NCBI GenBank assembly: GCA_001002135.1
Contig: LCLP01000001.1
Span: 485,368 to 549,367 of the forward strand
Reading direction: 5' to 3'
Length of the DNA stretch: 64,000 bases
From: Candidatus Pacebacteria bacterium GW2011_GWA1_46_10
GTDB lineage: Bacteria; Patescibacteriota; Microgenomatia; UBA1400; PJMF01
Shown: positions 466 through 42,493 of the stretch, one piece after another
Position numbering within the stretch: the first letter of the stretch is position 1
How the letters are laid out: the number at the start of each line of letters is the position of its first letter
Program-made: the position numbers and the translations under genes
The notes under the pieces: generated by a model
Seen by the model: only the letters and a program-made list of their open reading frames with translations
What the model was told of the DNA's origin: nothing
Database searches by the model: none

Positions 466-472
466 GGCGTGC

Positions 473-478
473 ATTATA
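473..478 (-). promoter_or_regulatory. -10 box TATAAT 7 nt upstream of rplU ATG (leaderless-type promoter)
   Basis: minus-strand sequence tcatgaTATAATgcacgccATG. Confidence 0.5.
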
Positions 479-4617: not shown

Positions 4618-5952
4618 CTATTTGCGTTGTCGTAAAAAAGCGGGGATTTCAAACTCGTCATCAAAGTCATCGCTCGGGAGTTCAGGAGGAGTTTCATCGT
4701 CTTGATCTTTATCGCTCTTTTTAGCTTTTTTAGTTTGTTTCGTATCATCCTGGGTGGAGTCATCAAACGCTGCTGACTGGATAAAAGGACTTGTCGCATC
4801 ATCAACCTGTTGTGTTTGGCCGCCAGTCACTTGCGACTTAGTCATGGGCTGTACCCACCCTTCGGGTGCACGATCGATTCGATCCTCTTTCTCTTCAGCT
4901 TCTATTTCATCGGTTTTACCAGTCCGATCACTGCCAACATGTTTCATGGCACTCCGACCATAGGCGCCAAACATACTGCGCTGGTTGTAGGCCATCTTGT
5001 CAGCAAAACCAGTGGCAATGACACTCACCTTTACTTTATTATTCATGCTCTCGTCAATTGTGGCACCAAAAATGATGTTGGCATCAGGATCGGCCGCATC
5101 GGCAATAATGGCGGAAGCATCCGCCACTTCTGCCATCGTCATGTCTTGACCACCAGTAATAGTGTAGAGAATCCCCTTAGCCCCACTGACCGAAATTTCC
5201 AAGAGTGGGGAAGAAGTGGCCATTCGAGCCGCTGAAACTGCCCGATTTTCACCGAAAGCTTCACCAATTCCCATCAGGGCACTGCCGGAATCTGTCATCA
5301 CTGCTCTGACATCAGCAAAATCAACATTGATTAACCCTGGCACGGTGATCAGATCAGAAATCCCTTTCACGCCCTGACCAAGTACATTATCGGCCAACCG
5401 GAAAGCATCCAAAAAAGTCATCTTCTTATCCACCACCTCCATCAACCGCTGGTTGGGAATCACAATGAGCGTGTCAACCGAGTCTGCTAAGATCTCAATC
5501 CCTTCCTCAGCCGTCTGCATTCGGCGAATGCCCTCGAAAGCAAACGGTTTGGTAACGACCGCCACAGTCAGTGCACCCGCTTCCTTAGCAATCTCAGCGA
5601 TGATGGGGGAAGCACCCGTGCCAGTACCGCCACCCATGCCGGCCGTGATAAACACCATGTCGGTATCAAACAACAAGTCTTTCAGTTTTTCTCGGCTTTC
5701 ATCAGCCGCCGTACGACCAATTTCTGGATCCGCCCCAGCCCCCAAGCCACGAGTAAAATTACTGCCGATCTGCAGTTTGGTGTCCGCTTTGGAGGTCAAA
5801 AGCACCTGAGCATCAGTGTTAATGGTAATAAACTCCACCCCTTGAATCTGCTTGGACTCCACCATGGAGTTGATGGCGTTACCACCCCCGCCACCGATCC
5901 CAATCACTTTAATCTTGGCAAAAGTAGTATTTGCAGGTTTAACCAATCCCAT
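4618..5952 (-). CDS. ftsZ: cell division GTPase FtsZ
   Basis: tubulin signature [13 protein letters not shown]; T7 loop region; C-terminal FtsA/ZipA-binding peptide [13 protein letters not shown] after a long acidic linker. Confidence 0.95.
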
Positions 5953-6038
5953 ATGTTTATATTCTAAGTATTTGTTTGTCAGTCAAAGTATAACATCCCA
6001 CCATAATTGATTTTTATTTTAAAGGCAACAACCACTTT

Positions 6039-8122: not shown

Positions 8123-9243
8123 GGTTTGAGGAGCGCGTCCACCACCACTTGATACAATCGCTCACCGGCGTTTTCCGGCAAACGGACATGCGCTAAACTT
8201 TCACGCATTGACTGTTCAAAAGTCTGCATTTTTTTGAGGGCCGCCAAAAGAGTAGTGGTATTCAGTGCTGTTTGTTCCAGTATCATCGCTCCACCTACTT
8301 TGACAAGCCATCGAGCATTTTTACGCTGCTCATCAAGCCGAGCGGTGGGTAGTGGAATCAAAATCGAGGGCAACCCCGCCGCCGCTAGCTCTTGAGTGGC
8401 GTTCGCGCCAGCACGTGAAATGGCACAAAAAGCATGACGATACAACCAAAATAAATCATGGTCATCAATCCACTCACGAATGTAGTATCGTTCTTGCAGT
8501 TTGACCGGCAATCGTTGTTGGCGTCGTGCCAAGATTTCTCGAGCATTATATCCAGCAGTCGGCCTACCACACTGATGCACTACCACCCAGTCACTCAACA
8601 ATTCTGACAGTGATGTTTCAATCACGTTATTGAGCGTCCGTGAACCCTGATTACCCCCCAACACGATGATAATTGGTTGGTTTATTCTTGGTTTGAGCCA
8701 AGTCGGTTGGGGATGACGTTGTCGAAAAACCCCGGCGCGCAACGGATTGCCGGTCACCACCGTTTTAGCTGCCAAAAACCTTGATGTGCTTTCCGGAAAA
8801 GTAACGGCAACTGAGTAAGCCACCAAACCAATAAATTTATTAGCAAAACCACTGACAATTGTCTGTTCATGTGTCACGACCGGAATACGAGCAAATTTAG
8901 CCGCCAGGGCAAAGGGGACGGCGACATAGCCCCCAAAACTCAAGACTACTGTTGGTCGCTCACGACGTAAAATCTCTCCTGCCTGGCGAAAACTTCTGAT
9001 GAAATGAGTCAAACGTGGGATAAAACGCCGAAAAAACCCAAGGTTGATCCGGACAGCCTGAAAGGGGACAAACCGAATACCCCGTTTTTCCACCTCATAC
9101 TGCTCAATTGCTTTTTGACCCGTAGTGTCTTGACTAAACTCTCTGCCAACAAAGACTAATTTATCTTTGGGATGATGAGCTTGAACAAAATCAATAAAAG
9201 AAAGCGCTGGAGTAAGATGTCCCCCTGTAATCAAGATCTTCAT
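8119..9243 (-). CDS. murG: UDP-N-acetylglucosamine--N-acetylmuramyl-(pentapeptide) pyrophosphoryl-undecaprenol N-acetylglucosamine transferase MurG
   Basis: MKILITGGHLTPALS (G-loop GGxGGH-like), GT28 C-terminal region; start placed at ATG 9243 (MKIL...), the track's 17-aa upstream extension overlaps ftsW. Confidence 0.88.
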   Translation of the reverse strand: MKILITGGHLTPALSFIDFVQAHHPKDKLVFVGREFSQDTTGQKAIEQYEVEKRGIRFVPFQAVRINLGFFRRFIPRLTHFIRSFRQAGEILRRERPTVVLSFGGYVAVPFALAAKFARIPVVTHEQTIVSGFANKFIGLVAYSVAVTFPESTSRFLAAKTVVTGNPLRAGVFRQRHPQPTWLKPRINQPIIIVLGGNQGSRTLNNVIETSLSELLSDWVVVHQCGRPTAGYNAREILARRQQRLPVKLQERYYIREWIDDHDLFWLYRHAFCAISRAGANATQELAAAGLPSILIPLPTARLDEQRKNARWLVKVGGAMILEQTALNTTTLLAALKKMQTFEQSMRESLAHVRLPENAGERLYQVVVDALLKP

Positions 9244-9244
9244 A

Positions 9245-10396
9245 CTATGATTGTACCTTTTTTCGACTTGAGGCGGAACGAGCTGATGTGTCAAGAAAAA
9301 TCTTCAAAACTAAGCCGGTAGTAAATAGTATGGTGAACAAAGCAGTCCCCCCGGAAGAAAAGAAAGGCAAAGGCAAACCAGTCAGTGGCACCAGCACCGC
9401 CACCGCAGCCAGATTTAATAGTATCTGACCGCTCATCCAGAGAAAAACACCCAAGACAAAAAGCTGCTCAAAACTCCGCTCTGGCAGTAGAGTGGCAATT
9501 CTGTAAAGTGTGATCAGATACCCCACAAATAACCCTATCACCACTAGAGCACCCACAAAACCAATTTCCTCAGCCACGATCGCAAAGATCGAGTCACTAC
9601 TCACTTCTGGAATATACGAGTATTTTTGCTGCGAATTCCCCAGCCCCACTCCAAACCACCCACCGTTCGCCAGCGCCAGAGTAATTTGCCGAACATGAAA
9701 CCCACTCCCGAGTGGATCAGTGTTTGGATCAAGGTAAGTTTGTAAGCGGGCCGCCCGATAAGGTGAGGCCACAATCAACAACAATAACCCCACCACACCC
9801 AGTACTCCCAGCCCACTGAGTAGTAGTAACTTTCCTCCCGCCAAGAAAAACAAACCAAATATCACCCACAATAACACTAAGAGTGAACCCATATCAGGTT
9901 GCAGCAAAAGCAGGAGTGAAAAAAGAGCAGTCAAAAAAAGAAACGTTGGCAGTTTGAGCTGACGAGACATCCACACAGCTGAAAAGAGGACGAGCGCCAA
10001 CTTAAAAAACTCTACTGGCTGAAATATCACTCCCTGAAAAGCAAACCACCGGCGCGCGCCGTTCAGTTCCACCCCAAAACCGGGCACCAACACCAAAATC
10101 AATAATACTAACCCTACCCCAAACCAGATCTGGGCGGTTTTCGCCCAAAACTTGGTCGGTAAAAGCAGGGCTACCACAAACGCGCCGCTGCCAAGGAATA
10201 AAGAAATGGCTTGCTGACGTAAAAAGTAATATTGATGACCAACCAGGTTGTAGCTTTCAGCGCTTGACGCCTCAAAAACAAACAATAACCCTAATACACT
10301 CAGTAACAGTGTAAACCCGACGAGCAGTAAACTGAGGGTCGGACGAAACCTGCCCGTTACATTTTTTTTGATCAGTCTACTCGCACTGCGCAACAT
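9245..10396 (-). CDS. ftsW: SEDS-family peptidoglycan glycosyltransferase FtsW
   Basis: 10-TM SEDS profile; located between mraY and murG as in canonical dcw clusters. Confidence 0.85.
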   Translation of the reverse strand: MLRSASRLIKKNVTGRFRPTLSLLLVGFTLLLSVLGLLFVFEASSAESYNLVGHQYYFLRQQAISLFLGSGAFVVALLLPTKFWAKTAQIWFGVGLVLLILVLVPGFGVELNGARRWFAFQGVIFQPVEFFKLALVLFSAVWMSRQLKLPTFLFLTALFSLLLLLQPDMGSLLVLLWVIFGLFFLAGGKLLLLSGLGVLGVVGLLLLIVASPYRAARLQTYLDPNTDPLGSGFHVRQITLALANGGWFGVGLGNSQQKYSYIPEVSSDSIFAIVAEEIGFVGALVVIGLFVGYLITLYRIATLLPERSFEQLFVLGVFLWMSGQILLNLAAVAVLVPLTGLPLPFFSSGGTALFTILFTTGLVLKIFLDTSARSASSRKKVQS

Positions 10397-19446: not shown

Positions 19447-19471
19447 TGCAACACCTGAGAATATTCCTTTA

Positions 19472-19477
19472 TATAAT
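19472..19477 (+). promoter_or_regulatory. -10 box TATAAT 6 nt upstream of dus ATG (leaderless-type promoter)
   Basis: cctttaTATAATatctttATG. Confidence 0.5.
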
Positions 19478-19483
19478 ATCTTT

Positions 19484-20551
19484 ATGAAAAATCTAGGCTT
19501 TTGGCACGAGCTGAAAAAACCAATCGTCGGCCTCTCACCGATGGACGGTGTGACAGATTATCCTTACCGGCATATTCAGAAAAAATACGGCCATCCTGAT
19601 GTGGTCTATACCGAGTTTGCCACGGTGGAGGGGTTTTGCCGTGGTGTGGAGAAAGTGTTGGATGATTTTCTTTATGACGAAGCGCAGCGACCGATCGTGG
19701 CCCAGATTTACGGTACCACTCCAAAGTTTTTCCGCGAAACAGCCACCGCTTTGTGTCAGTTAGGCTTTGATGGCATTGATATCAATATGGGTTGTCCGGC
19801 TAAAAGTGTGGCACACAGTGGGGCGGGAGCAGCTTTGATCCTTACCCCGAAGTTAGCTCAGCAAATCTTGAAAGCGACCAAGGCTGGGGTGGGGGATTGG
19901 CAAAACGGGAAAACCGTTCGTGATTGCTCACATATCACTCAGAAACTGACTCAAGAAATCGAGAGACGTCATCAACAACTGCCCAAAAAATATCAACAAC
20001 ATGATCGACCAATCCCCGTGACCGTCAAGACTCGCGTGGGCTTTGACATTAAGGTCATCCAAAACTGGATCAAGACGTTACTGGAAATCGAGCCTGTGGC
20101 CATTGCCATTCATGGTCGAACACTTAAACAAGGATATGGCGGTACAGCCGATTGGGAAGAAATCGGCAAGGCCGTGCAAACCGCCAAAGGCTCAAATACG
20201 ATGATTTTTGGTAATGGTGATGTGCATAGTCGTCAACAAGCACTTGAAAAGGTCAAACAGTATAGCGTTGACGGTGTTTTAATTGGCCGGAGTACCTTTG
20301 GCAACCCTTGGGTCTTTCAGGACCAGGAAGTTGACATTCACACCAGCGCCGGTGTAGCCGTTGAACATAGCCAGTTTTTCGAAGACATTTTTAAACACCG
20401 GGAAAACTACCGTTTTTTACCCATGCGCAAACACCTCGGTTGGTATATCAAAGGCATTCCCAATGCCACCGATATCAGGGTGCAGCTAGTCCAAGCCGAT
20501 AGCGCTCAACAAGTGCACGATATTTTGAAAAGTCACCAATTAATTTCATAA
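19484..20551 (+). CDS. dus: tRNA-dihydrouridine synthase (Dus family, FMN TIM-barrel)
   Basis: IVGLSPMDGVTDYPYRHI (Dus N-terminal signature), conserved Cys/Lys region, about 355 aa. Confidence 0.88.
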   Translation: MKNLGFWHELKKPIVGLSPMDGVTDYPYRHIQKKYGHPDVVYTEFATVEGFCRGVEKVLDDFLYDEAQRPIVAQIYGTTPKFFRETATALCQLGFDGIDINMGCPAKSVAHSGAGAALILTPKLAQQILKATKAGVGDWQNGKTVRDCSHITQKLTQEIERRHQQLPKKYQQHDRPIPVTVKTRVGFDIKVIQNWIKTLLEIEPVAIAIHGRTLKQGYGGTADWEEIGKAVQTAKGSNTMIFGNGDVHSRQQALEKVKQYSVDGVLIGRSTFGNPWVFQDQEVDIHTSAGVAVEHSQFFEDIFKHRENYRFLPMRKHLGWYIKGIPNATDIRVQLVQADSAQQVHDILKSHQLIS

Positions 20552-21187: not shown

Positions 21188-21193
21188 TATAAT
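21188..21193 (+). promoter_or_regulatory. -10 box TATAAT 8 nt upstream of ATG 21202 (leaderless-type promoter)
   Basis: ttacggTATAATacactttgATG. Confidence 0.5.
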
Positions 21194-21201
21194 ACACTTT
21201 G

Positions 21202-21735
21202 ATGCCAAAACCAGCCGAACTTCACTACGAACGGGTGCGGACCCTGATGCGTGACGGCGAATTTCCTCAGGTCAAAATCCCGATTTTATTAAAAAATGGT
21301 GATCAGCTTAACGACGTCATTCCGTACACCATTGCCCGCACCAAGATCGATGGTAAAGAAACACTGGCCATGTCTTTCCTCGATAGTAACAAAAAAGCTT
21401 TTAAAGTTGGAGTTGACGAAATTGCTGGCTTAGAAGTAGTTCCAGGAGAAGGGGAGTACGCTGGCAAAATGTTAGTTAGTTTTACCTACTATAAGCCAAC
21501 GTCAGAAACACAATACTTGGAAAACAAGCCTAGACATGTCTTAATTTTTGAAATTCGCCATGGGGTCAATGAGGCACATTATGGTTTTGGTGAAAACTAT
21601 GCCTTTTACTTAGTGGGACAAGACGTGCAATACAAAGATGCTCCTCCAGATGAACGTACTCGACAGTTTCCCGAATGGCGAGTGGGTATGATGGGCGATC
21701 CTCAAGCCGTCGAGCCACATTTCAAACGAGATTAA
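21202..21735 (+). CDS. hypothetical protein (177 aa)
   Basis: ORF; ATG 21202 preferred over TTG 21199; no recognisable family. Confidence 0.5.
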   Translation: MPKPAELHYERVRTLMRDGEFPQVKIPILLKNGDQLNDVIPYTIARTKIDGKETLAMSFLDSNKKAFKVGVDEIAGLEVVPGEGEYAGKMLVSFTYYKPTSETQYLENKPRHVLIFEIRHGVNEAHYGFGENYAFYLVGQDVQYKDAPPDERTRQFPEWRVGMMGDPQAVEPHFKRD

Positions 21736-21772
21736 TTAGTAGAGTAATTACATCAGGTATAATGACCAATTG

Positions 21773-24700
21773 ATGCCTGGAAAATCTGATTTTGCTCAAG
21801 TTTTTGCCCGTTTGAACCCTGCCCAAAAAAAGGCCGTCGAGACAATCGAGGGTCCGGTAATGGTGCTGGCCGGTCCGGGCACCGGCAAAACCCAGGTCTT
21901 AACCGCCAGAATCGCCCAAATTCTCAAGAAAACCGATACCCAGCCCAACGCCATCCTGGCCCTGACTTTCACTGAGAGCGCCGCCAAAAACATGCGCGAA
22001 CGCTTAGTACAGCTGATCGGCAAGACCGGCTATTACGTTCAAATCAGCACCTTTCACGCTTTTTGTCAGGACGTCATTACCACTCACCCCGAGTACTTTC
22101 CGATCCAGCGGGAAAGTGAGCCATTATCAGATCTGGAACGCTATGAATTGTTTGAGCAGATCTTTACTAGCCTAGATTTGGAATATATCCGACCGATGAA
22201 CATGCCGTTTCATTATGTCAAAGACGCCATCGGCGCCATTTCTGACCTCAAGCGTGAAGGGGTTAACGTCAAGGAATACCAACAACTAGTCAAAAACTGG
22301 GCCAAACAACTAACCAGCGAAAAACCTGACATGAAAAAAACCGCTTGGGAACAGGAAAACAAAATGCTTCAGCGCAATCAAGAACTCACCAAGGTTTACG
22401 GCGAATACGAAGCCAGACTGCGCACCGACCGGCGCTACGACTTTGATGACATGATCGCCTTAGTGGTTGAAGCGTTTGAAAACCACGACTTACTCTTACG
22501 GGAATATCAAGAAAACTTGCAGTATTTCTTAGTTGACGAATACCAAGATACTAACGCCGCCCAAAACTCAGTGGTAGACTTACTGGCCAGTTACTGGCAA
22601 CAAGAAACCGGCCAGCCAAATATCTTCGTGGTTGGCGACCCGAACCAGGCCATTTTCCGTTTCCAGGGCGCCTCAGTGGAAAACATGCTCGGCTTTTTGA
22701 AGCGCTACCACAGCGCCCAGGTCATCAAGCTTGATACCGGTTATCGTTCACCGCAAAAACTTTACTCCCTGGCTGACCAACTGATCGCTGAAAACCATCT
22801 CAAGTTGGACATAGAAAATGCTCAATTGAAAGTGGCAAAGCAGTTGAAGAGTTTACACGGCGCTGGCCAGCCGATCGAACTCTCACCGGCACCATCACCG
22901 GTGTTAGAGGCAGTCCAAGTGACAGAGCAAGTTAAAAAACTCCTAGCCAACAAAGTCCCTGTCCACGAAATCGCCGTGCTATACCGCCACAACGCAGACC
23001 GCACCACCCTTGCCGAAACCTTTGATAGCTGGGGGATTCCGTATGAAATCGAGGGTGGAGGAGATGCACTACAAGAAGACTCAATCCGCCAACTGTTAAC
23101 CTTTTTCCGAGTGATTTACCACATTCGCGATGCCAGCGAAAATGAAGAACTCTATGAGATTTTGCATTATGAATGGCTCAAACAAAAGTTTGGTCTGGAC
23201 GCCTTGGCGGTAATGAAAGTGGCTCGCGCGGCGGGGAAAGCGCGGATATCAATCCTGGAACTAATTGAGAGTGGCACCAAAGCCATTAATGGTCACAACA
23301 GTGGTTACCCCATCACTTCGTTAGAGCTCGAACCGATCCGTGAATGTATCCAAAAATTGAAAGACTGGAGTGGCTTGGACGCCACCACTACTTTTGGCAA
23401 GTGGTTTGAGACCGTCATTAAAGAATCAGGTTATCTTGATTGGTTATTCAAACACGATGGCAAGATTTACCTCATCACCGTGCTTAACTCTGTCTTTGGC
23501 GAGATTAAAAAGTTGATTGCCCACAATCATCATTTCAAGTTGGCCGACTTTCTACGCGCCATTGAGCTGATTGAAAACCACCGCTTACAAATCACCATCG
23601 AAGACCTTACTGTCCGTCGGCAAGCAGTCCATCTCTCCACCGTCCATAAGGCCAAAGGCAGAGAGTGGGATCACGTGTTTGTGGTACAGGTAGTTGACCG
23701 CAAGTGGGGCAATAATCGTGAGCATAATTTGATTCAACTGCCCGAAGCAATCCTGCAAAACACAGACTTAGACGCCAAAGAACGTAATGAGGATGAGCGG
23801 CGGTTATTTTACGTGGCGATCACGCGAGCAAAACAACGGGTATATGTATCATATCCCGAAACGTTAGTCAGCGATGGTCAGTCGCGCGACGCGGTGCCGA
23901 GCATGTTTTTGACGGAAATTGAATCGTTTGATCCACGAGGCAAATTAATGAAGCGCGCGGACCAATCAGCGATTTACGATAAAGCAGATGAATACCTAGT
24001 TAAACTCTTGAAACCGTCACAAGTCCTGATTACCCAAGACACTCAAAAAGCCTATCTCAAATGGCTTTTGGATCACTTCCGCTGGTCCACCACGGCGCTG
24101 GATACGTATCTTAAAGATCCAGCGGAGTTTCTTCACTACACGCTGCTGCGAGTGCCGCGAGCCAAGGCAATTCAGTTCGCCTTTGGCACCGCCATTCACA
24201 CTGCTTTGGAAAAATACTACTCAGCGCTCCAACAAACAGGTGAGTACTTACCTCTGCCCGCCCTCCAACAAACCTTTGAGCGAGCTCTCAAACAAGAAGT
24301 GTTGACCGAGCAAGAGTTCAGAGATCGACTGCGCTTCGGCAAAAAAATTCTGGAACAATATGCCAAATTTTACCAAAACCAATCAGTCAACCCTTTTTTG
24401 ATTGAGCGCTTCTTTGGTGGCGGCAGACAGCGAGTGGTGCTTGACGATATCCTGCTGACCGGCCGCATCGACCGGGTGGACTGGGTCGATCAAAAACAAC
24501 AGCTGGTGAAAGTGATCGATTACAAAACCGGCCAGGTGAAAAGCGAAAATGAAATTGAGGGGAAATCAGGCAAGCTCTCGCCACGTGAGCAGACTCTTCC
24601 AGCAAGTATTCGCGGTTCGTACAAACGACAACTATTATTTTATAAACTGCTCACCCAACTCGACCGGACTTTTCCTTACGAAGTAGTAGAGGGAGAGTTT

Positions 24701-25495: not shown

Positions 25496-25538
25496 CCCCA
25501 TCTAGCCAAACATTCATTTCATCCTCTATACTATCAGT

Positions 25539-26555
25539 ATGCTCGATTGGTTTTCGACCAAAGACAAAACAAGAGTCACTATTTCCCCTAGTATCGTGGT
25601 TTTTAGCACTGCTTTCCTTGGCTTGATTTACTTCCTTTTTCTGACTCGTAAAATCCTGATTTTACTTTTTTTATCATTCATTTTGATGGTGGCCCTCAAC
25701 CCGGCCGTCAATCGACTCCAAAAGACCCTCCGTCTGCCAAGGGGAGTGAGTATTGCTATCGTGTACGTCCTGTTTTTCTTACTGATCGCCGCTGTCACCG
25801 CCCTGGTGCTGCCGCCATTAACTTCTGAAATTGTGCGCCTGATTAAAACCATTGACTTGCCATACATTCAAGACCAGCTCAATGGTTTTTTCCAGTTTTC
25901 CAATATGGAGTTGGGAACACTCGCCACCCAATTCACCAGTTCGATCAATTTCCTGGTCAGTGCGGTGACTGGCACGGTAACCAGCATCTTTACTTTTATC
26001 ACTTTGCTGATTTTGTCTTTTTACCTGATGCTTGACCGGCCGAACCTGCACCAAAAAATTGTCTGGTTCACCGATGACCGTAAACACCTTTCGCGGGCTG
26101 AACAATTTGTTGATGATTTGGAAATCCAGCTTGGCGGCTGGGTGAGAGGAGAGATTATTCTGATGACCGCGATCGCCTTAATGACATACTTTGGATTAAC
26201 GCTTTTAAAAATCCCATTCGCCTTGCCATTGGCGATTCTGGCTGGTTTTTTGGAAATTTTACCCAACCTGGGCCCTTTTATCTCTGCTATTCCCGCGGTT
26301 ATCTTGGCTTACATCAGCCAAGGCTCTGGCCTGGCTTTAGCAGTGACTGGTTTATACTTAGTCATCCAACAACTAGAAAATAGTCTATTAGTTCCCAAAA
26401 TCATGCGTGTTAACGCGCATGTCAACCCTCTGATTGCTATTCTGAGCATTTTGATTGGGTTGCAGTTATACAGCATTGTGGGAGGGTTGTTGGCCATCCC
26501 GGTCTACATCACCCTACGAGCTATTTACTCCAACTGGCGCAAATACGCACTTTAA
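25539..26555 (+). CDS. AI-2E family transporter (UPF0118/PerM-like)
   Basis: 338 aa, 7-8 TM with topology and C-terminal conserved region typical of the AI-2E family. Confidence 0.75.
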   Translation: MLDWFSTKDKTRVTISPSIVVFSTAFLGLIYFLFLTRKILILLFLSFILMVALNPAVNRLQKTLRLPRGVSIAIVYVLFFLLIAAVTALVLPPLTSEIVRLIKTIDLPYIQDQLNGFFQFSNMELGTLATQFTSSINFLVSAVTGTVTSIFTFITLLILSFYLMLDRPNLHQKIVWFTDDRKHLSRAEQFVDDLEIQLGGWVRGEIILMTAIALMTYFGLTLLKIPFALPLAILAGFLEILPNLGPFISAIPAVILAYISQGSGLALAVTGLYLVIQQLENSLLVPKIMRVNAHVNPLIAILSILIGLQLYSIVGGLLAIPVYITLRAIYSNWRKYAL

Positions 26556-26590
26556 ACTAGCCTCCCTGCTAAATACGTTATAATCTGCCT

Positions 26591-27715
26591 ATGGCAACCC
26601 AAGGCCTAGTCGTTTACGCATTCTCTGGTGATCCAATTACCTATGGTCACCTTGATCTCATCAAGCGCGCTCAACAGTTATTTCCCAAAATCATCGTCGC
26701 CATCGGCACCAATCCCGATAAAAACTATACCTTTACTCACCGAGAAAGAACGCGACTGGCTCAACAAGCCCTCGCACACCTCAGGGATGTTACAGTCGAA
26801 GGGTTTGAGGGGTTGATAGTGGATTTTGCCTACGAACAAGGCGCTCAAGCCATTATTAAAGGAGTTCGTGATCCACAAGACTTTCAATATGAACAAACCT
26901 TAAACAGCATCAGCCAAAGCCAACACCACGGCATCGAGACCGTCATTCTCTTTGCTAAACCAGAGTTGGCTCACGTTAGTTCCAGTGCGGTCAAGGCTCT
27001 GCAAACTTCTCAAGGCTTAGTGCACGACTATGTCCCGCTTAATGTTAAAGTGGCGCTCGAAAAAAAACTGTCACACCAAGTATTAATTGGTATCACCGGC
27101 GAAATCGCCAGTGGTAAAAGTTATGTGGCAGAACAACTGGTGATCTGGGGCCAGGCGCAAGGGCAAATCATTCACAATATCGAGTTAGATCACTTGGCAC
27201 ACCAAATTCAAAGTGAGCGAAAAGAGCCACAGTACCAAGCAATCAGAAGTGAAATCGTCAAAAACTTCGGTAAAAGCGTGCAAAACAACGATGGCACTAT
27301 CAACCGCAAAGCGTTGGGCGAAAAAGTTTTTGCCGACCCCCAAAAATTGGCACTGCTCAATCAAATCATGTGGCCGCCAGTATTGGTGCGACTGCGCCGA
27401 GAACTGCGTAATAAACCAGGGATTGTGTTCATTAACAGTGCGCTCCTGGCCGAAGCTGACTTGATGCCGGTCTGTAACAACCGAGTAATCGTGATATCAA
27501 GCACCCAATCAGCCCAAAAAAAACGCTTGCAGGAACGCGGCTTTTCTGATGAACAAATTAACCGTCGTCTCAAATCACAATTTTCAACCAAGAAAAAGCT
27601 TGATTTGATTCAGCAGTCGATCAACCAGTATCACTTTGGTACAATTTGGCAGGTGGGGGATCAGACTGATCTTACTCAGTTCGCCAAAACTTTTTTTAAG
27701 GAAATCACCTCATAA
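26591..27715 (+). CDS. coaDE: bifunctional phosphopantetheine adenylyltransferase / dephospho-CoA kinase (CoaD-CoaE fusion)
   Basis: N-terminal half VVYAFSGDPITYGHLDLI (CoaD H/TxGH nucleotidyltransferase motif) plus ...SSAVKAL; C-terminal half IGITGEIASGKSYVAEQL (CoaE P-loop) plus ...LLNQIMWPPVL...RVIVISSTQSAQKKRLQERGFSDEQ (CoaE lid/C-terminal blocks). Confidence 0.85.
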   Translation: MATQGLVVYAFSGDPITYGHLDLIKRAQQLFPKIIVAIGTNPDKNYTFTHRERTRLAQQALAHLRDVTVEGFEGLIVDFAYEQGAQAIIKGVRDPQDFQYEQTLNSISQSQHHGIETVILFAKPELAHVSSSAVKALQTSQGLVHDYVPLNVKVALEKKLSHQVLIGITGEIASGKSYVAEQLVIWGQAQGQIIHNIELDHLAHQIQSERKEPQYQAIRSEIVKNFGKSVQNNDGTINRKALGEKVFADPQKLALLNQIMWPPVLVRLRRELRNKPGIVFINSALLAEADLMPVCNNRVIVISSTQSAQKKRLQERGFSDEQINRRLKSQFSTKKKLDLIQQSINQYHFGTIWQVGDQTDLTQFAKTFFKEITS

Positions 27716-28460: not shown

Positions 28461-29180
28461 TCAAGGAAGTAAGGTGGCCCTTAACCGCTGGAAAGCCGGA
28501 AACTTGCGGCGAAAGGCCATCATAATCACATCAGTGGCTTCATTAATCGAATAATGGGTGGTATTAAGGGTAATATCGTACGCGTTGCGGCTGTTGAGAT
28601 CTTTTTTGAAGTATGTCTTCACAAAGTCGTCTCGTTCTTTCTCTACTTGAGCTATCACTTCCTGAGCTGTTTCTTCATCAAAGCCTTCATACTGCATGGC
28701 CCGCTGCACCCGCACGTCATAGGGAGCAACAATATTGACGTGTAAACCTCTGGCAAAAGGCGTAATAAAGTTGGCCCCACGCCCCAAAATGACACAGTTG
28801 CCTTGGTGAGCAAAGTTCAAAACCACTCGACTTAACGCCCTTGCGTATCTACTTTCCTCAACGTATTCCGGATTCAAAACCGAGTGAATAATATTGTCTA
28901 CATAGGTACGACCCTTTTCGTCAATTTCCTTGATAGCTGCTTTGTGCTTTTTGGTTGATTTGGCCAACTCATCAACAATCGCCTCGTCATGTAAGGTGAA
29001 ACTCAATCTTGTTGCTAAACGCCGAGCAATCGGGGCGCCACCACTGCCTGGTTCACGAGCCACGGTAATAAACGGCCGTTCAAAAAAATGCTCTTCCTTG
29101 GGGACTTGCTTTTCCAAAGTATCCCTGATCTTCAAGGTCGAAACAATCCGGTTAATCAGCGGATAGTAGTCAATTGGCAT
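28461..29180 (-). CDS. cytidylate-kinase-like family P-loop protein
   Basis: ITVAREPGSGGAPIARRLATRL P-loop context resembling the CMP kinase N-terminus; about 240 aa; start at ATG 29180 (MPIDYY...) preceded by GAAGGAG. Confidence 0.6.
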   Translation of the reverse strand: MPIDYYPLINRIVSTLKIRDTLEKQVPKEEHFFERPFITVAREPGSGGAPIARRLATRLSFTLHDEAIVDELAKSTKKHKAAIKEIDEKGRTYVDNIIHSVLNPEYVEESRYARALSRVVLNFAHQGNCVILGRGANFITPFARGLHVNIVAPYDVRVQRAMQYEGFDEETAQEVIAQVEKERDDFVKTYFKKDLNSRNAYDITLNTTHYSINEATDVIMMAFRRKFPAFQRLRATLLP

Positions 29181-29277
29181 ACAGGGTGAAGTATAGCGCA
29201 CTCCTTCTCATTTTTTAATGTTAAATTCGGGAAATGTTAGTAATTCCAGGCAGGCAGTAATGTTATAATCTGGGTGC

Positions 29278-29351
29278 TGCCTCAGTAGCTCAGTGGATTA
29301 GAGCGCAGGTCTTCGGAACCTGGCGTCGGGGGTTCGAATCCCTCCTGAGGC
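29278..29351 (+). tRNA. tRNA-Arg (anticodon UCG)
   Basis: acceptor GCCTCAG/CTGAGGC, anticodon loop CUUCGGA, T-loop GGTTCGAATCC; TATAAT at 29263-29268. Confidence 0.9.
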
Positions 29352-29358
29352 ACAACAA

Positions 29359-30216
29359 CTATCGCCTCTTTTTCATTCTATATAACAGTTTATCTACATC
29401 TTTTTCCATGTTTCGAACAGTCAATTCGCCGATCATTTTACTAGCCACAATTAGCCCCGAACTCGCAGATAAATCAAACATCAGGGATCCTGTATCTCGT
29501 TGATTTTTCGTGTTTCTATTAAGTTGTTCAAGATTTTTAAACACTCGGTTAACAATAGTTTGAGCCACTGTTTCATTTACCGGCAGTAAAAGAGTAAACT
29601 CATCTCCTCCCCAACGATAGGCCAAGTCTCCCACGTCGGCGCGAATACTGTTCGTCAAAACTTTGGCAAAGTATCTTAATACATCATCACCAACAGGATG
29701 GCCGTATGTATCATTAACTGTTTTAAGTCCGTCCACATCAAATAACACTAGGCAAAAATCTTTCCTTTCCATTTCATATCTGTTGATAAAAACCTGAAGG
29801 TCTTGATTAAATTTCCGACGATTAAAAAGACCAGTTAAAACATCTCTCACTGCTGCTGCTTCTGCTGCCACTGCTCGGTTCTCTGTTTCATTAAGTTGCT
29901 TGATAATTTCAGTCATCCCTAGCAAAAATTCATCTCCAATTTCTGGTTGATGTTGGCGGTAATAATCAAGCCATAGTTCTCTAAGGTTTTTAGTGTGATC
30001 TTCAGCTTGGATATTTTTCCATAACTGCTTGAGCGCTGCCAAAAGTCCAATCCGAAAAAAGTCAGCCTCCTTTGTTCTGCCTTGATCCTCCAACTTCTGC
30101 ATAATACCCAATATCGTGGAACGAAATCCCTCATTTTCCTGAGAAAGTGTCGAACGATCACCTTGTTCTATTTTGTCAGGCTGGAACACTGCTTTTTCCC
30201 TATCCAGATCACTCAT
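29359..30216 (-). CDS. GGDEF-domain diguanylate cyclase with about 115-aa N-terminal helical domain of unknown function
   Basis: VLTGLFNRRKF...DVDGLKTVNDTYGHPVGDDVL...RWGGDEFTLLLP (intact GGDEF active site). Confidence 0.85.
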   Translation of the reverse strand: MSDLDREKAVFQPDKIEQGDRSTLSQENEGFRSTILGIMQKLEDQGRTKEADFFRIGLLAALKQLWKNIQAEDHTKNLRELWLDYYRQHQPEIGDEFLLGMTEIIKQLNETENRAVAAEAAAVRDVLTGLFNRRKFNQDLQVFINRYEMERKDFCLVLFDVDGLKTVNDTYGHPVGDDVLRYFAKVLTNSIRADVGDLAYRWGGDEFTLLLPVNETVAQTIVNRVFKNLEQLNRNTKNQRDTGSLMFDLSASSGLIVASKMIGELTVRNMEKDVDKLLYRMKKRR

Positions 30217-30309
30217 AACTATTTATTTTATAATAAGCTACCTTTTTTAAACACCGTCGCAGATTTGCTAGCAATCTCTCGGGAAAAAAAGTACAATACT
30301 TCCGTTCAC

Positions 30310-30386: not shown

Positions 30387-31535
30387 TTGCCTGATGTTCA
30401 TCAGTGATTGTTTGGAGTGTGTGGTTTGGATCACGTGATAATGAGACATAATGTGCCGCATCGCCATAATCATTTGACTAACTGCGTCTTTCTCAGTTCT
30501 AAATGATTTAACTTCAATAACGGTATATGGATTTTGTCCATTCTCTACCTGATCAGTGGAAATCAGCATTTTCTTCGGAATATGTGCATAGGCTCTGGTG
30601 ACTGTGACTTCTTGCTTTTCGCTGGATAAAGTCATTTCTTGAAGATACTGACGAGACTCATCATCAAGCACGCGTTGAAATTTATCTCTGGCAACGGGGA
30701 AATAATTGTACTGTTCCGGTTTGCGGCGCTTTAGTTCAGAAGCGCGATTGTAAATCAACTGAATTTCCTCTGGCCCAACTGCTTCCCCATTTTCAAATCT
30801 TTTTCGCAACCTCAGTTGTGGTTGCCGACCATTATAATATTTGAGCGAAGGCTGAAAATATATGTCGTGGTAAGTCCCAGTGTGAATTTCGCCCAATTGA
30901 AAATAATCGGCCAACTCCGCCAAAATATGTTCTGAGTTTATTTCCTTGACAATAAAACGCGATTCCAACTGTTTTTCTAGGGAAAACCCGCGCCGCATCA
31001 ATCGATGAGTTTGCATTTTATAGAGTGCTTCCTTCAGTGAAACTTCAGCAGCCGAAACACCGCCAACTGAAATCATGAAAGCAATAACCGATAGCATCCA
31101 AGCGGGCGTTTCCGGAAATTGCTTTAACTCAAGGAGTAATAAACCCATATACAATGGATCAGCGGCCACTAAATCCTTTAGAAAATTCGGGAAACCAGTT
31201 CGTAGCGCATCGGTCACATACTCGTTTTTCTTTTTTCGCTCAACCGGTGGTGTAGTTCGGTAGACGTCAAAGGCTTTTTTGGAAGAGGCAGTAAAAAAAC
31301 CGATCTTTTCCAACACTGGTCCCACCAATGATATAAAAACGCTGTTGTCAGAGACCATCGATAGAGCAAAAACGCCAGCCGTATTAATCCCCAGAGCCAC
31401 TAATTCATCCCTGCCAAAATCTCGTAAAATTTGCCAAAATGGACTCTCAGGTAACAGGATTGGTTGTTCGTTTAATGTTTGCGCCACTAAATTTTCATTG
31501 GTGCGTACAGTAGTTTCCTCAGTCATACCTAACAA
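30381..31535 (-). CDS. membrane protein with C-terminal CYTH-like (triphosphate-tunnel) domain, tentative
   Basis: N-terminal half with 3-4 TM helices; C-terminal half FIVKEINSEH...RLRKRFENGE...YTVIEVKSF is compatible with CYTH/CyaB-type motifs but not certain; stop codon overlaps the 3' end of tRNA-Lys by 6 nt. Confidence 0.4.
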   Translation of the reverse strand: MLGMTEETTVRTNENLVAQTLNEQPILLPESPFWQILRDFGRDELVALGINTAGVFALSMVSDNSVFISLVGPVLEKIGFFTASSKKAFDVYRTTPPVERKKKNEYVTDALRTGFPNFLKDLVAADPLYMGLLLLELKQFPETPAWMLSVIAFMISVGGVSAAEVSLKEALYKMQTHRLMRRGFSLEKQLESRFIVKEINSEHILAELADYFQLGEIHTGTYHDIYFQPSLKYYNGRQPQLRLRKRFENGEAVGPEEIQLIYNRASELKRRKPEQYNYFPVARDKFQRVLDDESRQYLQEMTLSSEKQEVTVTRAYAHIPKKMLISTDQVENGQNPYTVIEVKSFRTEKDAVSQMIMAMRHIMSHYHVIQTTHSKQSLMNIRQW

Positions 31536-31555
31536 GATTGTAACAAATAGTACGC

Positions 31556-31561
31556 TATAAT
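31556..31561 (+). promoter_or_regulatory. -10 box TATAAT 7 nt upstream of prs ATG (leaderless-type promoter)
   Basis: gtacgcTATAATgactgtcATGaaa. Confidence 0.5.
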
Positions 31562-31568
31562 GACTGTC

Positions 31569-32453
31569 ATGAAAATCGTGGCAGGTTCATCAAATCACGA
31601 CCTGGCAATTAAACTGGCCAAACAACTCAAAACCGAATTGATTCCCTGTAAAATCGATAAATTTGCTAACGGCGAGAAACGGATTCAAGTTGATCGGTCT
31701 GCCAAAGGGCAAGAGATTCTCCTGGTTCAATCATTTTCCAATCCGGTTGATGAACATATTATTGAAACCTTGCTCATTGCTGATGCGCTGGAGCGGCTTG
31801 GCGCCCGCAGTGTGGAACTGTTTGTGCCATGGTTTGGCTATTCATTCCAAGACAAAGTTTTTTTACCAGGGGAGCCACTGTCTGCTAAAGCCATTGCCCG
31901 CGCAGTAGAGAGTACGGCTATCAGAAAAGTCTATTTGCTTGATTTACACAACATTAGTATTCCGGGGTTTTTTTCAATTCCCACCTATCACTTAAGCGCC
32001 ATTGATGTATTTGTACATTACAGCCAGGAACACTTTGACTTTAATCAAGCCATTGTCGTCAGTCCAGACTTTGGCGGCTTAAAACGGGCAAAGACTTTTG
32101 CCGACGAGCTTGGTCTTGATCTCGCCAGTGTCGAAAAACACCGCAACTTGAAAACCGGCGAAATCACAACCAGCAAACTTGATGGCAATGTCAAAGGTAA
32201 AATTGCGCTGATTTTTGACGATGCCATTCTTTCCGGCAGTACAACTATCGAGGTATCCAAGTTGCTCAAACAGCAAGGCGCCAAGCAAGTCCATTTCTTT
32301 GCCACTCATGGCGTGTTCACCGGTACGGCCCTAAAAGATCTGCAGCAATCCGGAGTAAATAGCGTGGTGGTGACTAATTCCATCGCCCAAGCAAAACTAC
32401 CGTCCAAAATCAAGATGCTGGATATTTCACCTATCCTGGTAGAAAATATCTAA
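31569..32453 (+). CDS. prs: ribose-phosphate pyrophosphokinase (PRPP synthetase)
   Basis: MKIVAGSSNHDLAIKLAKQL... Prs N-terminus, PRPP-binding loop DDAILSGSTT; start at 31569 rather than 31560, which overlaps the -10 box. Confidence 0.9.
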   Translation: MKIVAGSSNHDLAIKLAKQLKTELIPCKIDKFANGEKRIQVDRSAKGQEILLVQSFSNPVDEHIIETLLIADALERLGARSVELFVPWFGYSFQDKVFLPGEPLSAKAIARAVESTAIRKVYLLDLHNISIPGFFSIPTYHLSAIDVFVHYSQEHFDFNQAIVVSPDFGGLKRAKTFADELGLDLASVEKHRNLKTGEITTSKLDGNVKGKIALIFDDAILSGSTTIEVSKLLKQQGAKQVHFFATHGVFTGTALKDLQQSGVNSVVVTNSIAQAKLPSKIKMLDISPILVENI

Positions 32454-32496
32454 GGATAGATCTATAATCGCCCTTTCCTCATCAAAAAGGAATGAT

Positions 32497-34302
32497 ATGA
32501 ATCAAACGCAACTGCGTAATATCGCTATTATCGCCCATGTCGACCACGGCAAAACCACGCTCGTGGATGCGATGTTGAAGCAAACCAAAACCTTTGCCAC
32601 TCATCAAAAGGAGAATCAGGCGACGACCATTATGGATTCCAACGAACTGGAACGGGAAAAAGGCGTGACGATTTTGTCTAAAAACACCGCCGTCTTTTGG
32701 CGCGATTACAAAATTAATATTCTGGATACTCCGGGTCACGCGGACTTCTCCGGTGAAGTCGAGCGAGTGCTGAATATGGCTGATGGTTGTATTCTTTTGG
32801 TTGACGCCGCGGAAGGCGTCTTATCGCAAACCCGGTTTGTGTTGCGGCTGGCGCTTGAACTCGGCTTAATTCCAATTGTGCTGATTAATAAAGTGGATCG
32901 CAAAGATCAGCAAGTAAAACTAGTTGAAAAAGAAATTGGTGATTTGTTTTTGGAACTGGCTACTCAAGATTGGCAGTTGAATTTCCCAATTCTTTACGGT
33001 CGTGGCATTGAAGGCATTGTCGGCACACAACTGGCTGAAAACAAAGATTATTCCCAGACCATTATTAACAGCACTAATTTAGATCCGCTGTTTCAAACCA
33101 TCGTCGAAACAATTCCCGCGCCAGACGGTGATTCAGCTGCACCGCTCCAACTACAAGTCAATTCACTGGATTGGGACCAACATAAAGGGCGCATTGCTAT
33201 TGGCCGGATTTTCCAAGGCACGATAAAAAAAGGTCAAACGATTAAACTCCTTCATACCAACGGTAAAGAAACGAAAGGCACTATTGTTTATCTTTATAAC
33301 CATTTCGGACTAGACCGGAAAGAAGTTGGTGAAGCGAGCGCCGGTGAGATTGTGGCCGTAGCTGGTTTGGCTGACACTGGCATTGGCGATACCATTGCCG
33401 ACCCCGAACACCCAGTAGCTCTGCCAGCGATTATCATCACCGAACCAACGGTCAAAATACAACTGATGATCAATACCTCACCGTTTTCCGGGCAAGAAGC
33501 CGAATTTTCCACCGCCAGACAATTGCGCAGTCGTTTGGATAAAGAACTGGAAACCAACGTCGGCTTACGTCTTCTGCTGGGAACTTCCAGTGAAAGCATG
33601 ACGATCGTCGGGCGGGGAGAACTTCATTTGGCTATTCTGATTGAAACCATGCGCCGCGAGGGATATGAGTTCGCCTTGTCCAGACCAGAAGTGGTGTTAA
33701 AAGAGCAAGCCGGACAAACCACTGAACCTTGGGAATACGTCACCATTGACGTGCCAGAAAAACACACCGGTACGATCACCGCTGGCATGGCTCGGCGCCG
33801 GGGACAGTTGAAAAACATGCGTCAGACTAAGGTTGGCGTACGGTTTGAATACGAAATCTCGACCGCCAATCTCATCGGCTATCGCAACGAACTGCTCACC
33901 GCCACTTCCGGCGAAGGTGTGGTGCACAACATCTTTTTGGAATACCGACCGCTGTCGGAGCAAGCGGAATTTCACCGCGGCGGTGCGATGATTGCCCATG
34001 AAACCGGTATAGTTACTGCTTACGCCTTGGAGAAAGCGCAGCAGCGCGGCACGCTGTTCGTCGATCCAGGTGATAAAGTCTACGCTAGCCAGGTGGTTGG
34101 TATCCAGAAACGACCAGAGGATATGACGATGAATGTGGTCAAAGGTAAAAAACTGACTAACTTCCGAGCCGCTAGTGCTGATACGCTGATTGTCCTGGCC
34201 CCAGGCTGGAAACCATCACTGGAACAGTTTCTGACTTTAATCGGCGAGCATGAAGTATTGGAAGTGACGCCAAAGAGTTTACGCTTGAGAAGCCTTTCAT
34301 AA
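32497..34302 (+). CDS. typA: translational GTPase TypA/BipA
   Basis: IRNIAIIAHVDHGKTTLVD G1, DTPGHADF G3, NKVD G4; 601 aa with BipA-type C-terminal domain. Confidence 0.93.
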   Translation: MNQTQLRNIAIIAHVDHGKTTLVDAMLKQTKTFATHQKENQATTIMDSNELEREKGVTILSKNTAVFWRDYKINILDTPGHADFSGEVERVLNMADGCILLVDAAEGVLSQTRFVLRLALELGLIPIVLINKVDRKDQQVKLVEKEIGDLFLELATQDWQLNFPILYGRGIEGIVGTQLAENKDYSQTIINSTNLDPLFQTIVETIPAPDGDSAAPLQLQVNSLDWDQHKGRIAIGRIFQGTIKKGQTIKLLHTNGKETKGTIVYLYNHFGLDRKEVGEASAGEIVAVAGLADTGIGDTIADPEHPVALPAIIITEPTVKIQLMINTSPFSGQEAEFSTARQLRSRLDKELETNVGLRLLLGTSSESMTIVGRGELHLAILIETMRREGYEFALSRPEVVLKEQAGQTTEPWEYVTIDVPEKHTGTITAGMARRRGQLKNMRQTKVGVRFEYEISTANLIGYRNELLTATSGEGVVHNIFLEYRPLSEQAEFHRGGAMIAHETGIVTAYALEKAQQRGTLFVDPGDKVYASQVVGIQKRPEDMTMNVVKGKKLTNFRAASADTLIVLAPGWKPSLEQFLTLIGEHEVLEVTPKSLRLRSLS

Positions 34303-36616: not shown

Positions 36617-36622
36617 TATAAT
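36617..36622 (+). promoter_or_regulatory. -10 box TATAAT 6 nt upstream of ATG 36629 (leaderless-type promoter)
   Basis: cttcttgTATAATgcctgtATGgaa. Confidence 0.5.
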
Positions 36623-36628
36623 GCCTGT

Positions 36629-37504
36629 ATGGAATCCCGTCCGCTGATTGTGACGCATCATGCACCCGACCTCGACGCTGTCACAGCCACTTGGCTGCTG
36701 AAACGCTTTGACGCGCAGCACTTTGCTGATTCTAAAATTGGGTTCGTCAATCCCGGTGAGAAAATGGATCTGAGCGACGCCGAAGAATTGGGCAGTCAAC
36801 TCCATGAAATCGTCTATGTTGATACCGGCTACGGGAAATTTGATCACCATCAACCAAATAAAGCCTTGCAAAAAATTTGCGCCGCCAGCTTAGTTTTTGA
36901 CTATATCTGCGAACAGCATCCCGACAAAAAAACAGACCAGGCCTTGCAAACCATCGTTAAGTTCGCCAACCAAATCGATCATTTTGAAGAAATTACCTGG
37001 CCAGAACCGGAATCGGAGCGAAACTTATTCATGATCCAGGAACTTATCCGCGGCCACGAATACACCGATCCGCACAATGATGACTCCCAAATGCATTTTG
37101 GTTTTCAGTGTTTGGACAATGTCTACGCCACCCTCACCCAACACTACAAAGCGCTCGATATCATTCACAGCAAGGGCCAAGTAATCCCGCTCAAAGAAGG
37201 TCAGGCGTTAGTGCTCTTAACCCGTAATGACGACACTCTTAAAGTGGCCCAAAAACAGGGCTATCTAATGGTCGCCCGCAAAGACCCAAAACTTGGTCAC
37301 ATCAGAATTAAAGTCAGGCCTGACTCACTCTTAGATTTAACTACACTCTATAAACGAATCCTTGAAGTCGATAAAAAAGGGACCTGGTTCCTGCATGGCA
37401 GCGGCAAAATGCTGCTGAACGGTTCAACCAAAAACCGCGATCAAAAACCCAGCCCACTGACCTTGGAACAAATCATTGTTTTAATCAAGGAAACATATGG
37501 TTAA
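36629..37504 (+). CDS. DHH-family phosphoesterase (NrnA/oligoribonuclease-pAp phosphatase-like)
   Basis: motif I THHAPDLDAVTA, motif II VYVDTGY, motif III FDHHQ; start at ATG 36629 (the track's TTG 36614 overlaps the -10 box). Confidence 0.7.
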   Translation: MESRPLIVTHHAPDLDAVTATWLLKRFDAQHFADSKIGFVNPGEKMDLSDAEELGSQLHEIVYVDTGYGKFDHHQPNKALQKICAASLVFDYICEQHPDKKTDQALQTIVKFANQIDHFEEITWPEPESERNLFMIQELIRGHEYTDPHNDDSQMHFGFQCLDNVYATLTQHYKALDIIHSKGQVIPLKEGQALVLLTRNDDTLKVAQKQGYLMVARKDPKLGHIRIKVRPDSLLDLTTLYKRILEVDKKGTWFLHGSGKMLLNGSTKNRDQKPSPLTLEQIIVLIKETYG

Positions 37505-37982: not shown

Positions 37983-38016
37983 CAAGTAACAAAGAGTGGG
38001 GTACAATACACGCTCT

Positions 38017-42480: not shown

Positions 42481-42486
42481 TATACT
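42481..42486 (+). promoter_or_regulatory. -10 box TATACT 7 nt upstream of gatC ATG (leaderless-type promoter)
   Basis: ggcttctgcTATACTgccagatATGgtg. Confidence 0.45.
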
Positions 42487-42493
42487 GCCAGAT

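Follow-up and report, generated by a model that had tools for sequence, protein, structure and literature searches.

The DNA analysed here, referred to as the window, is a 64,000-nucleotide (nt) stretch of contig LCLP01000001.1 of Candidatus Pacebacteria bacterium GW2011_GWA1_46_10, and the subject is the start regions of its protein genes. At many of them, including dus for a tRNA-dihydrouridine synthase, a hexamer of the type of a bacterial -10 promoter box precedes the start codon by a few bases. An earlier note had listed ten genes with such a hexamer and without a Shine-Dalgarno (SD) sequence. TATAAT, TACAAT or TATACT was confirmed at 10/10 of these genes, 6-9 nt before ATG or GTG; this gap is the number of bases between hexamer and start codon. 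A systematic pass over all long open reading frames (ORFs) of the window added nine cases: ftsZ, murG, an AI-2E transporter gene, coaD/E, a cytidylate-kinase-like gene, a GGDEF gene and three more genes, with starts at 31526, 40700 and 52361. A GGAG, GAGG or AGGA core is absent from the 6-10-nt gaps of all 19 cases. They amount to 34% of the window genes (19 of about 56) in this list, compiled with the motif known, and to 24% of the long ORFs in a motif-blind count of boxes that have no more than one mismatch and a gap of 6-9 nt.

On the plus strand, the dus promoter region (19472..19486) has TATAAT at 19472-19477, a gap of 6 and ATG at 19484; the NCBIfam DusB profile aligns from residue 9. 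A hypothetical gene for 177 amino acids (aa) without a family match follows (21188..21204; TATAAT 21188-21193, gap 8, ATG 21202). The gene of a UvrD/PD-(D/E)XK helicase-nuclease (21758..21775) has TATAAT at 21758-21763, a gap of 9 and ATG at 21773. The AI-2E transporter gene (25527..25541) is preceded by TATACT at 25527-25532 (gap 6, ATG 25539) and the coaD/coaE fusion (26579..26593) by TATAAT at 26579-26584 (gap 6, ATG 26591). Further downstream are a 291-aa gene with a weak DHH-like match (36617..36631; TATAAT 36617-36622, gap 6, ATG 36629), rpsU (38002..38019; TACAAT 38002-38007, gap 9, ATG 38017; S21 profile position 3 at residue 5) and gatC, the first gene of gatCAB-dnaE (42481..42496; TATACT 42481-42486, gap 7, ATG 42494). 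The ldh gene (49053..49067; TACAAT 49053-49058, gap 6, GTG 49065) has the only non-ATG start among the 19. Position 5 of the L-LDH profile aligns with residue 7 of ldh, and the next ATG (49125) lies inside the Rossmann motif.

On the minus strand, rplU (463..478) has TATAAT at 478-473, a gap of 7 and ATG at 465, and the L21 profile starts at residue 4 of this short form. The ftsZ gene (5950..5966; Pfam Tubulin/FtsZ_C) has TAGAAT at 5966-5961, gap 8 and ATG 5952; murG (9241..9255; Pfam Glyco_transf_28) has TACAAT at 9255-9250, gap 6 and ATG 9243. The cytidylate-kinase-like gene (29178..29195; TATACT 29195-29190, gap 9, ATG 29180) probably has an mRNA with a 2-3 nt leader. A weaker box, TAAAAT at 30230-30225, precedes the GGDEF gene (30214..30230; gap 8, ATG 30216). 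A 614-aa gene of unknown function (40698..40712) has TATACT at 40712-40707, gap 6 and ATG 40700. The serine-hydrolase gene (52359..52373; TACAAT 52373-52368, gap 6, ATG 52361; Pfam Ser_hydrolase) has its box in the 15-nt spacer after secA. For secA itself (55338..55354), TATAAT at 55354-55349 is followed by a gap of 8 and ATG 55340, with SecA profile position 6 at residue 9.

Two genes share a region within 31524..31571: the minus-strand gene 31526 (TACAAT 31542-31537, gap 10, ATG 31526) and the plus-strand prs (TATAAT 31556-31561, gap 7, ATG 31569). In their divergent spacer of 42 bp (31527-31568) the two -10 boxes stand back to back, at 7-10 nt from the respective ATG, which makes the spacer a predicted bidirectional promoter region of extreme compactness. 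The gene names of the earlier note agree with NCBIfam and Pfam, apart from 'DHH'. The match of the 36629 gene to PF01368 is weak (E=0.0017, below the cut-off) and begins at residue 6.

A Dus protein identical to that of the window is encoded on contig DQGQ01000009.1 of assembly GCA_003524865.1 and on several metagenome contigs. Its closest named homologs belong to 'Patescibacteria group', 'Candidatus Pacebacteria' and 'Microgenomates group' bacteria, and the closest species representatives are metagenome-assembled genomes of Woesebacteria type, which places this ultrasmall bacterium in the candidate phyla radiation, most likely in the class Microgenomatia. Two syntenic relatives provided orthologous start regions: L087, with a Dus protein of 80% identity, and L088, with 77%. 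For dus, the non-syntenic L089 and L090 (Dus 67% and 65% identical) were added, and its hexamer and spacing are kept in all four. Six orthologous promoters were compared: dus, helicase-nuclease, AI-2E, coaD/E, prs and the cytidylate-kinase-like gene. The hexamers are identical at 72/72 positions, including the non-consensus TATACT variants. The flanks are 38% identical in the 25 nt upstream and 47% in the 5 nt downstream. Spacing stays at 6-9 nt with one exception at 11. AI-2E has the same TATACT and the same 6-nt gap in both syntenic relatives, where the boxes of coaD/E and prs are also conserved. The gap of the helicase-nuclease gene is 8 in L087 and 7 in L088, with a conserved N-terminus MPGK; the cytidylate-kinase-like gene keeps TATACT with a gap of 8 in L087 and 11 in L088.

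The hexamer is not a frequent sequence in this DNA. TATAAT is under-represented: composition predicts about 48 copies in the window, and both strands together contain 27. Seven of these 27 lie 5-9 nt before the start of a long ORF, compared to 3/693 for the 19 other permutations of A3T3 (Fisher p=5e-9), a start being an ATG or GTG close to the 5' boundary of an ORF with a minimum of 100 aa. In the gap histogram of the window, the values 0-5 are empty, the counts peak at 6-9 and larger gaps occur only sporadically; hexamers of matched composition give a flat profile. The relatives, surveyed over 1.2 Mb, have their peak of TATAAT-to-start gaps at 5-8 nt, again with flat control hexamers.

A motif-blind scan took the first ATG of every long ORF and ranked all hexamers at -16..-10 against their genome frequency. 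TATACT, CTATAC and TATAAT came out on top in the window, 70-105-fold enriched, and lead together with TACAAT in the pool of window and close relatives. Non-CPR loci, with CPR for candidate phyla radiation, are enriched in AAGGAG and other SD hexamers instead. The modal hexamer start is -12 (gap 6), with shoulders at gaps 7-9. Counted from the A of ATG, the hexamer then occupies -12..-7; this is the canonical -10 to +1 geometry and sets the A at the canonical +1. In the relatives, the start codon is ATG in 49/56 cases (88%). A pyrimidine occupies -1 in about 70% (39/56 and 41/53 cases), which fits the pyrimidine(-1)/purine(+1) start-site preference of RNA polymerase. The window has in this way a Pribnow-like TANNNT sharply peaked about 6-8 nt before starts, with enrichments of 50-105-fold over the tests, and no SD between box and start codon, as defined for the group C type of GeneMarkS-2. 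An archaeal-type box about 22-26 nt upstream was not seen; there is no peak at -30..-20.

A/T-rich intergenic regions and start codons chosen to fit the motif might together create such a pattern as an artefact. The 19 cases were assembled with the motif in mind, and TAnnnT with one mismatch is a loose pattern. The same sharp peak was obtained by start-blind and motif-blind tests, the composition-matched control hexamers are flat and the boxes are conserved in orthologs. The signal is also missing from control lineages of similar or lower GC content. The artefact was tested here and is not supported; we regard it as hardly credible.

A different function of the same letters is translational. 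UAUAAU could be an A/U-rich non-SD element on leadered mRNAs that binds the ribosome or protein S1, as in GeneMarkS-2 group B of Bacteroidetes. The motif is indeed A/U-rich and located where an SD usually is, and the ribosomes of CPR bacteria are unusual in that bS1 is shortened and proteins are missing (PMC9297842). The sequence corresponds to the sigma-70 -10 consensus, however, and variation is tolerated only at positions 3-5; permutations of A3T3 with equal composition lack a positional peak. Transfer RNA (tRNA) genes are informative, as they are not translated. Five tRNA genes or clusters of the window carry TATAAT or TACAAT at 9-12 nt upstream of the mature 5' end of the first tRNA (18610-18615, 28291-28296 and 28443-28448 on the minus strand, 29264-29269 and 30292-30297 on the plus strand). 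In the tRNA-Arg promoter (29264..29279, plus strand), TATAAT at 29264-29269 ends 9 nt before the mature 5' end at 29279, so the hexamer acts at a non-coding gene. Over the window and its relatives, a box at a gap of 8-12 nt was present at 27/58 first-in-cluster tRNAs. The pre-tRNA leaders would be about 2-6 nt long. The offset is about 4 nt longer at tRNA genes than at protein genes, which is what a short leader retained at tRNAs for RNase P and a start codon at +1 in protein genes would predict. The same hexamers at tRNA genes identify them as promoters rather than ribosome sites.

SD-led genes point in the same direction. TATAAT is also present 17-28 nt upstream of such genes, and these show that a canonical anti-SD is in use. 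The motif does not precede all genes: it is missing at the tightly coupled, operon-internal murB, murA, ftsW, gatA and gatB, unlike the Bacteroidetes type, in which internal genes carry it as well. On this computational evidence from tRNA genes and SD-led genes the motif is a promoter and not a translation signal, and a ribosome- or S1-binding element is very improbable.

The promoters have little beyond this box. No -35 consensus was found among the 19; only a G at -14 is common (12/19). A two-hexamer scan for -35 plus -10 gave 30 matches in comparison to 25.2 +/- 5.8 in shuffles, which is no excess. The classical sigma-70 arrangement of TTGACA 16-18 nt upstream of TATAAT is therefore not the rule here. 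Judged by sequence, the 19 look like promoters of a -10-only or partly extended -10 type, as in other leaderless-rich lineages.

The window also contains genes with ordinary leaders. SD cores precede gene 18861 (GGAGG), gatA at 42801 (GGAGG), lemA at 40969 (AGGAG), proS at 34355 (AGGAG), typA (AGGA) and lysK (GAGG); all six counter-examples of the earlier note are real by sequence, and gatB and serS belong to the same set. Two of them illustrate the contrast. On the plus strand, typA (32463..32499) has TATAAT at 32463-32468, then a 28-nt leader with AAGGA and ATG 32497; on the minus strand, lysK (58864..58889) has TATAAT at 58889-58884, a 17-nt leader with GAGG and ATG 58866. The box-adjacent starts are located at the first genes of transcription units, with operon boundaries as predicted here, and SD sequences elsewhere; tightly coupled internal genes lack the box.

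The coexistence of both modes, as the earlier note had suggested, is also visible in more distant relatives. A set of 80 metagenome loci anchored on DnaE (42-70% identical) has good gatCAB-dnaE synteny. About 20/30 gatC orthologs retain TAnnnT 6-9 nt before the start, and lemA orthologs retain an AAGGAGGTG SD. That gatC keeps the -10 box and lemA the SD in some 20-30 relatives indicates conservation gene by gene: the predicted initiation mode is a conserved property of each gene. Of the other SD-led genes, gatA, proS and lysK likewise keep an SD in relatives. Orthologs of ldh, secA and rpsU were scarce in the DnaE scan, and the 36629 gene had none there.

The SD-type hexamers enriched in the window and L087-L089 include AGAAAG, GAAAGG, AAGGAA and AAAGGA besides AAGGAG. 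This suggests that SD pairing may extend into the extreme 3' tail of the 16S rRNA; no rRNA gene is present within the window. Among close relatives, mraY appears to have switched between leadered and leaderless-type starts. In the window (11450, minus strand), TACAAT is 22 nt upstream of the start and followed by a purine-rich leader, likewise in L087 (1613); in L088 (2185), TACAAT is only 8 nt from the ATG.

The hexamers are likely -10 elements placed for leaderless transcription. Motif, spacing, enrichment, conservation, presence at tRNA genes and start-codon positions were observed. For transcription start sites and the translation route, we infer the following sequence of events. Promoters for the housekeeping sigma factor, with little or no -35 and often a G at -14, would supply the boxes. 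RNA polymerase would begin either at the first base of the start codon, an A (or G), or 1-4 nt upstream of it. Such an mRNA would have neither a 5' untranslated region (UTR) nor an SD, and the ribosome with the initiator tRNA would bind the 5'-terminal AUG on the leaderless route. The remaining genes would have ordinary leaders with SD sequences of the AGAAAGGAGG family. The leaderless layout probably applies to more than half of the transcription units of the window.

Spacing, conservation and the boxes at tRNA genes support the leaderless claim of the earlier note, which had counted gaps up to 9 nt; the longer gaps qualify it. Several observations weigh against the proposal in its strict form. 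Gaps of 8-10 nt (7/19 cases) imply short leaders, possibly of 1-4 nt, rather than strictly leaderless mRNAs. The share of 34% comes from the list compiled with the motif known. The murG box is inside the 3' end of ftsW and ambiguous, either an internal promoter or a chance occurrence. Many boxes are in short spacers of 15-48 nt after a gene on the same strand, and intrinsic terminators between same-strand genes are not enriched (21 observed, 22 expected). Polycistronic read-through transcripts that contain these genes internally and without SD probably exist as well.

Taken further, these transcripts offer another explanation: the promoters would be real but secondary, expression would come mainly from polycistronic read-through, and translation without SD would proceed by coupling, re-initiation or an unstructured A/U-rich site, leaving a minor leaderless fraction. 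With 10/19 boxes in such same-strand spacers and one convincing terminator in 20 kb, read-through has its basis. The exact conservation of hexamer and spacing, however, reveals selection that acts on the promoter as well as on how far it lies from the ATG. A minor promoter would need no such conservation, which weakens the explanation. Moreover, dus, prs and the genes at 31526, 36629 and 40700 are divergent or follow a tRNA and have no same-strand gene upstream. A minor role of the promoters is unlikely, and leaderless transcription from the -10 elements is preferred.

Leaderless starts have consequences for gene calling. NCBIfam profiles begin within residues 1-13 of the short, box-adjacent protein forms. 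Upstream TTG, ATG or GTG alternatives are not conserved in relatives or are inside the box as TATAATG. For rplU, ATG 474, the first of the ORF, was rejected as it lies within the hexamer (TATAATG). In prs, ATG 31560 consists of the last two bases of TATAAT plus G and is not conserved in L087 and L088; position 1 of the Prs profile aligns with residue 1 of the short form. TTG 21770 of the helicase-nuclease gene is not conserved and is CTG in L087. TTG 21199, GTG 37996 and TTG 36614 were rejected as well, as each overlaps the box or is not conserved. The view that such upstream TTG and GTG starts are artefacts of the ORF track holds. Family profiles align near residue 1 of the short forms of rplU, prs, rpsU and ldh, in favour of the corrected starts. 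For the 36629 gene, the correction has the motif and a profile match from residue 6 on its side, and this DHH match is sub-threshold. The basis of the corrected starts of ldh, secA, rpsU and the 36629 gene is profile alignment and motif.

Public gene calls of L088 for dus (384 aa), helicase and AI-2E (10001, 11213 and 14967) are extended across the -10 box. The extension of ORFs across the box, sometimes to an ATG formed by TATAAT and G (474 and 31560 in the window), is a systematic annotation artefact here. Gene callers without a leaderless model extend such genes upstream, sometimes to the box-formed ATG. In CPR genomes this affects N-termini, signal peptides and intergenic features, and start-codon calls are the immediate practical value of the present analysis.

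The mechanism is already known in bacteria. A Pribnow box 6-8 nt from the start is experimentally established for leaderless transcription in Mycobacterium and Deinococcus (PMC6028130, PMC3898074, PMC12340547, PMC3160421), and the design is built into GeneMarkS-2 as 'group C' (PMC6028130). Actinobacteria (M. tuberculosis, M. smegmatis, Corynebacterium and Streptomyces) have TANNNT 6-8 nt before operon-first genes, as here, and about 25-50% of their transcripts are leaderless (PMC6028130, PMC3898074). Shared features are also the missing SD, a weak or absent -35 and the coexistence with SD-led genes. GTG starts are common among mycobacterial leaderless genes, in contrast to about 88% ATG here. 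The present CPR genome is small, with 46% GC; its boxes are near-full TATAAT instead of the degenerate TANNNT, and its leaderless layout is predicted from sequence.

In Deinococcus-Thermus, a '-10 region adjacent to ORFs' has to keep a strict spacing, and a class of genes with GGAG ribosome sites exists beside it, similar to the window (PMC12340547). Differential RNA sequencing of D. deserti, as cited in PMC6028130, is among the evidence for leaderless genes in Deinococcus. About 30% of Deinococcus ORFs have the -10-adjacent layout, the highest among the phyla of that study (PMC12340547); the window has 24% (motif-blind) to 34% (curated). Deinococcus is a different phylum, and promoter function and spacing were demonstrated there by mutagenesis and reporters, whereas they are deduced here. 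Archaeal leaderless genes (group D) resemble the window in mRNAs that begin at the start codon and in SD sequences for internal genes. Their box is about 22-26 nt upstream, whereas the peak at -12 has bacterial sigma-70 geometry. In Escherichia coli systems, single leaderless mRNAs such as lambda cI from PRM and tetR of Tn1721 have a 5'-terminal AUG and depend strongly on it. These are isolated cases; here it is a genome-wide design. A survey of CPR ribosomes describes loss of the anti-SD in only some Parcubacteria and does not mention leaderless initiation (PMC9297842). No report of leaderless genes in CPR or Patescibacteria was found in the literature searched, which did not cover subscription papers.

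The spread of the layout was followed in relatives from a scan of genome contigs, with Dus at most 59-61% identical among the matches listed. Counted were copies of TATAAT 6-9 nt before an ATG or GTG opening a long ORF. Loci labelled Woese-, Shapiro- or Roizmanbacteria had 26/176 (control hexamers 0.8%, p 1e-22). The counts were not significant for loci labelled Gracilibacteria, Peregrinibacteria or Peribacteria (5/244, control 0.9%), for those labelled Dojka-, Magasanik-, Doudna- or Parcubacteria (1/65, control 1.2%) and for Chloroflexota, Nitrospira and other non-CPR loci (1/63, control 0.8%). The -10-adjacent signal is absent from the sampled Gracilibacteria-type, other CPR and non-CPR loci. 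Class-level statements are provisional, as the taxon labels are record titles and many records are mislabelled. With this proviso, we consider it an evenly balanced question whether Microgenomatia (Woese-, Shapiro-, Roizman- and Pacebacteria-type) use -10-only leaderless expression throughout the class as a major and conserved mode, with a frequency matching Deinococcus-Thermus, and whether this mode is absent from the sister CPR classes of the Gracilibacteria/Peregrinibacteria and Parcubacteria/Dojkabacteria types.

If it is class-wide, a third large bacterial lineage joins the leaderless group. The initiation mode would then be linked to the reduced CPR ribosome, and systematic mis-annotation of CPR starts would be explained. 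Leaderless initiation for at least one third of the genes of Microgenomatia would bear on initiation by reduced ribosomes, and also on the idea that leaderless initiation is the ancestral mode. Leaderless genes have no regulation by a 5' UTR, so control would be exerted at the promoter or after initiation. For genetics in these uncultured bacteria, GnTATAAT, 6 nt and ATG would be a minimal promoter and start design.

Twelve loci labelled Peregrinibacteria, Peribacteria or Abawacabacteria of the CPR (L019, L024, L026-L031, L033, L035, L040, L063) have TTAACC, TAACCA and ATAACC as the most enriched hexamers 10-16 nt before starts. These TTAACC-type hexamers correspond to neither an SD nor a -10 box; they might serve as another kind of non-SD start signal. 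The closest listed Dus relatives are encoded by loci titled 'uncultured Pseudomonadales' or 'Gammaproteobacteria' (L007-L009, L011, L017, L058, L062, L070, L073). L058, L062, L070 and L073 also have a CPR-type start signal, and the Pseudomonadales and Gammaproteobacteria titles look like mislabels.

Rfam at the gathering threshold detected only tRNAs in the window. The ileS gene (ATG 4415, minus strand) has a 194-nt leader downstream of TATAAT 4615-4610 (region 4395-4615). This leader is strongly structured, with a minimum free energy of -72.7 kcal/mol (z=-5.2), and contains GGCUGGUACC, which we take to resemble the conserved T-box sequence. Adjoining the AUG is a long hairpin with U6 behind it, in which the AAAGG ribosome site is buried. 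A T-box had no Rfam match at E<=1 in the leader, and a permissive scan gave no meaningful family. The leader may be a divergent T-box attenuator.

A second structured element separates the membrane gene from the dus promoter (19385-19458, plus strand). It is single-copy and also present in L087 (9908-9980) and L088 (9993-10066). Rfam, including the permissive scan, had no match for it. A role as -35 was rejected because the element is not at a constant distance from the -10 box. The region upstream of dus with this element is 83% identical across the three genomes, compared to about 38% at other promoter flanks. The element folds into a hairpin of 17 bp that has an internal loop of 8 nt and a GAAA loop; the sequences AAAACCACAYGCA and GCAACACCU, both conserved, flank it. 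One pair of the stem varies between G-U, A-U and G-C.

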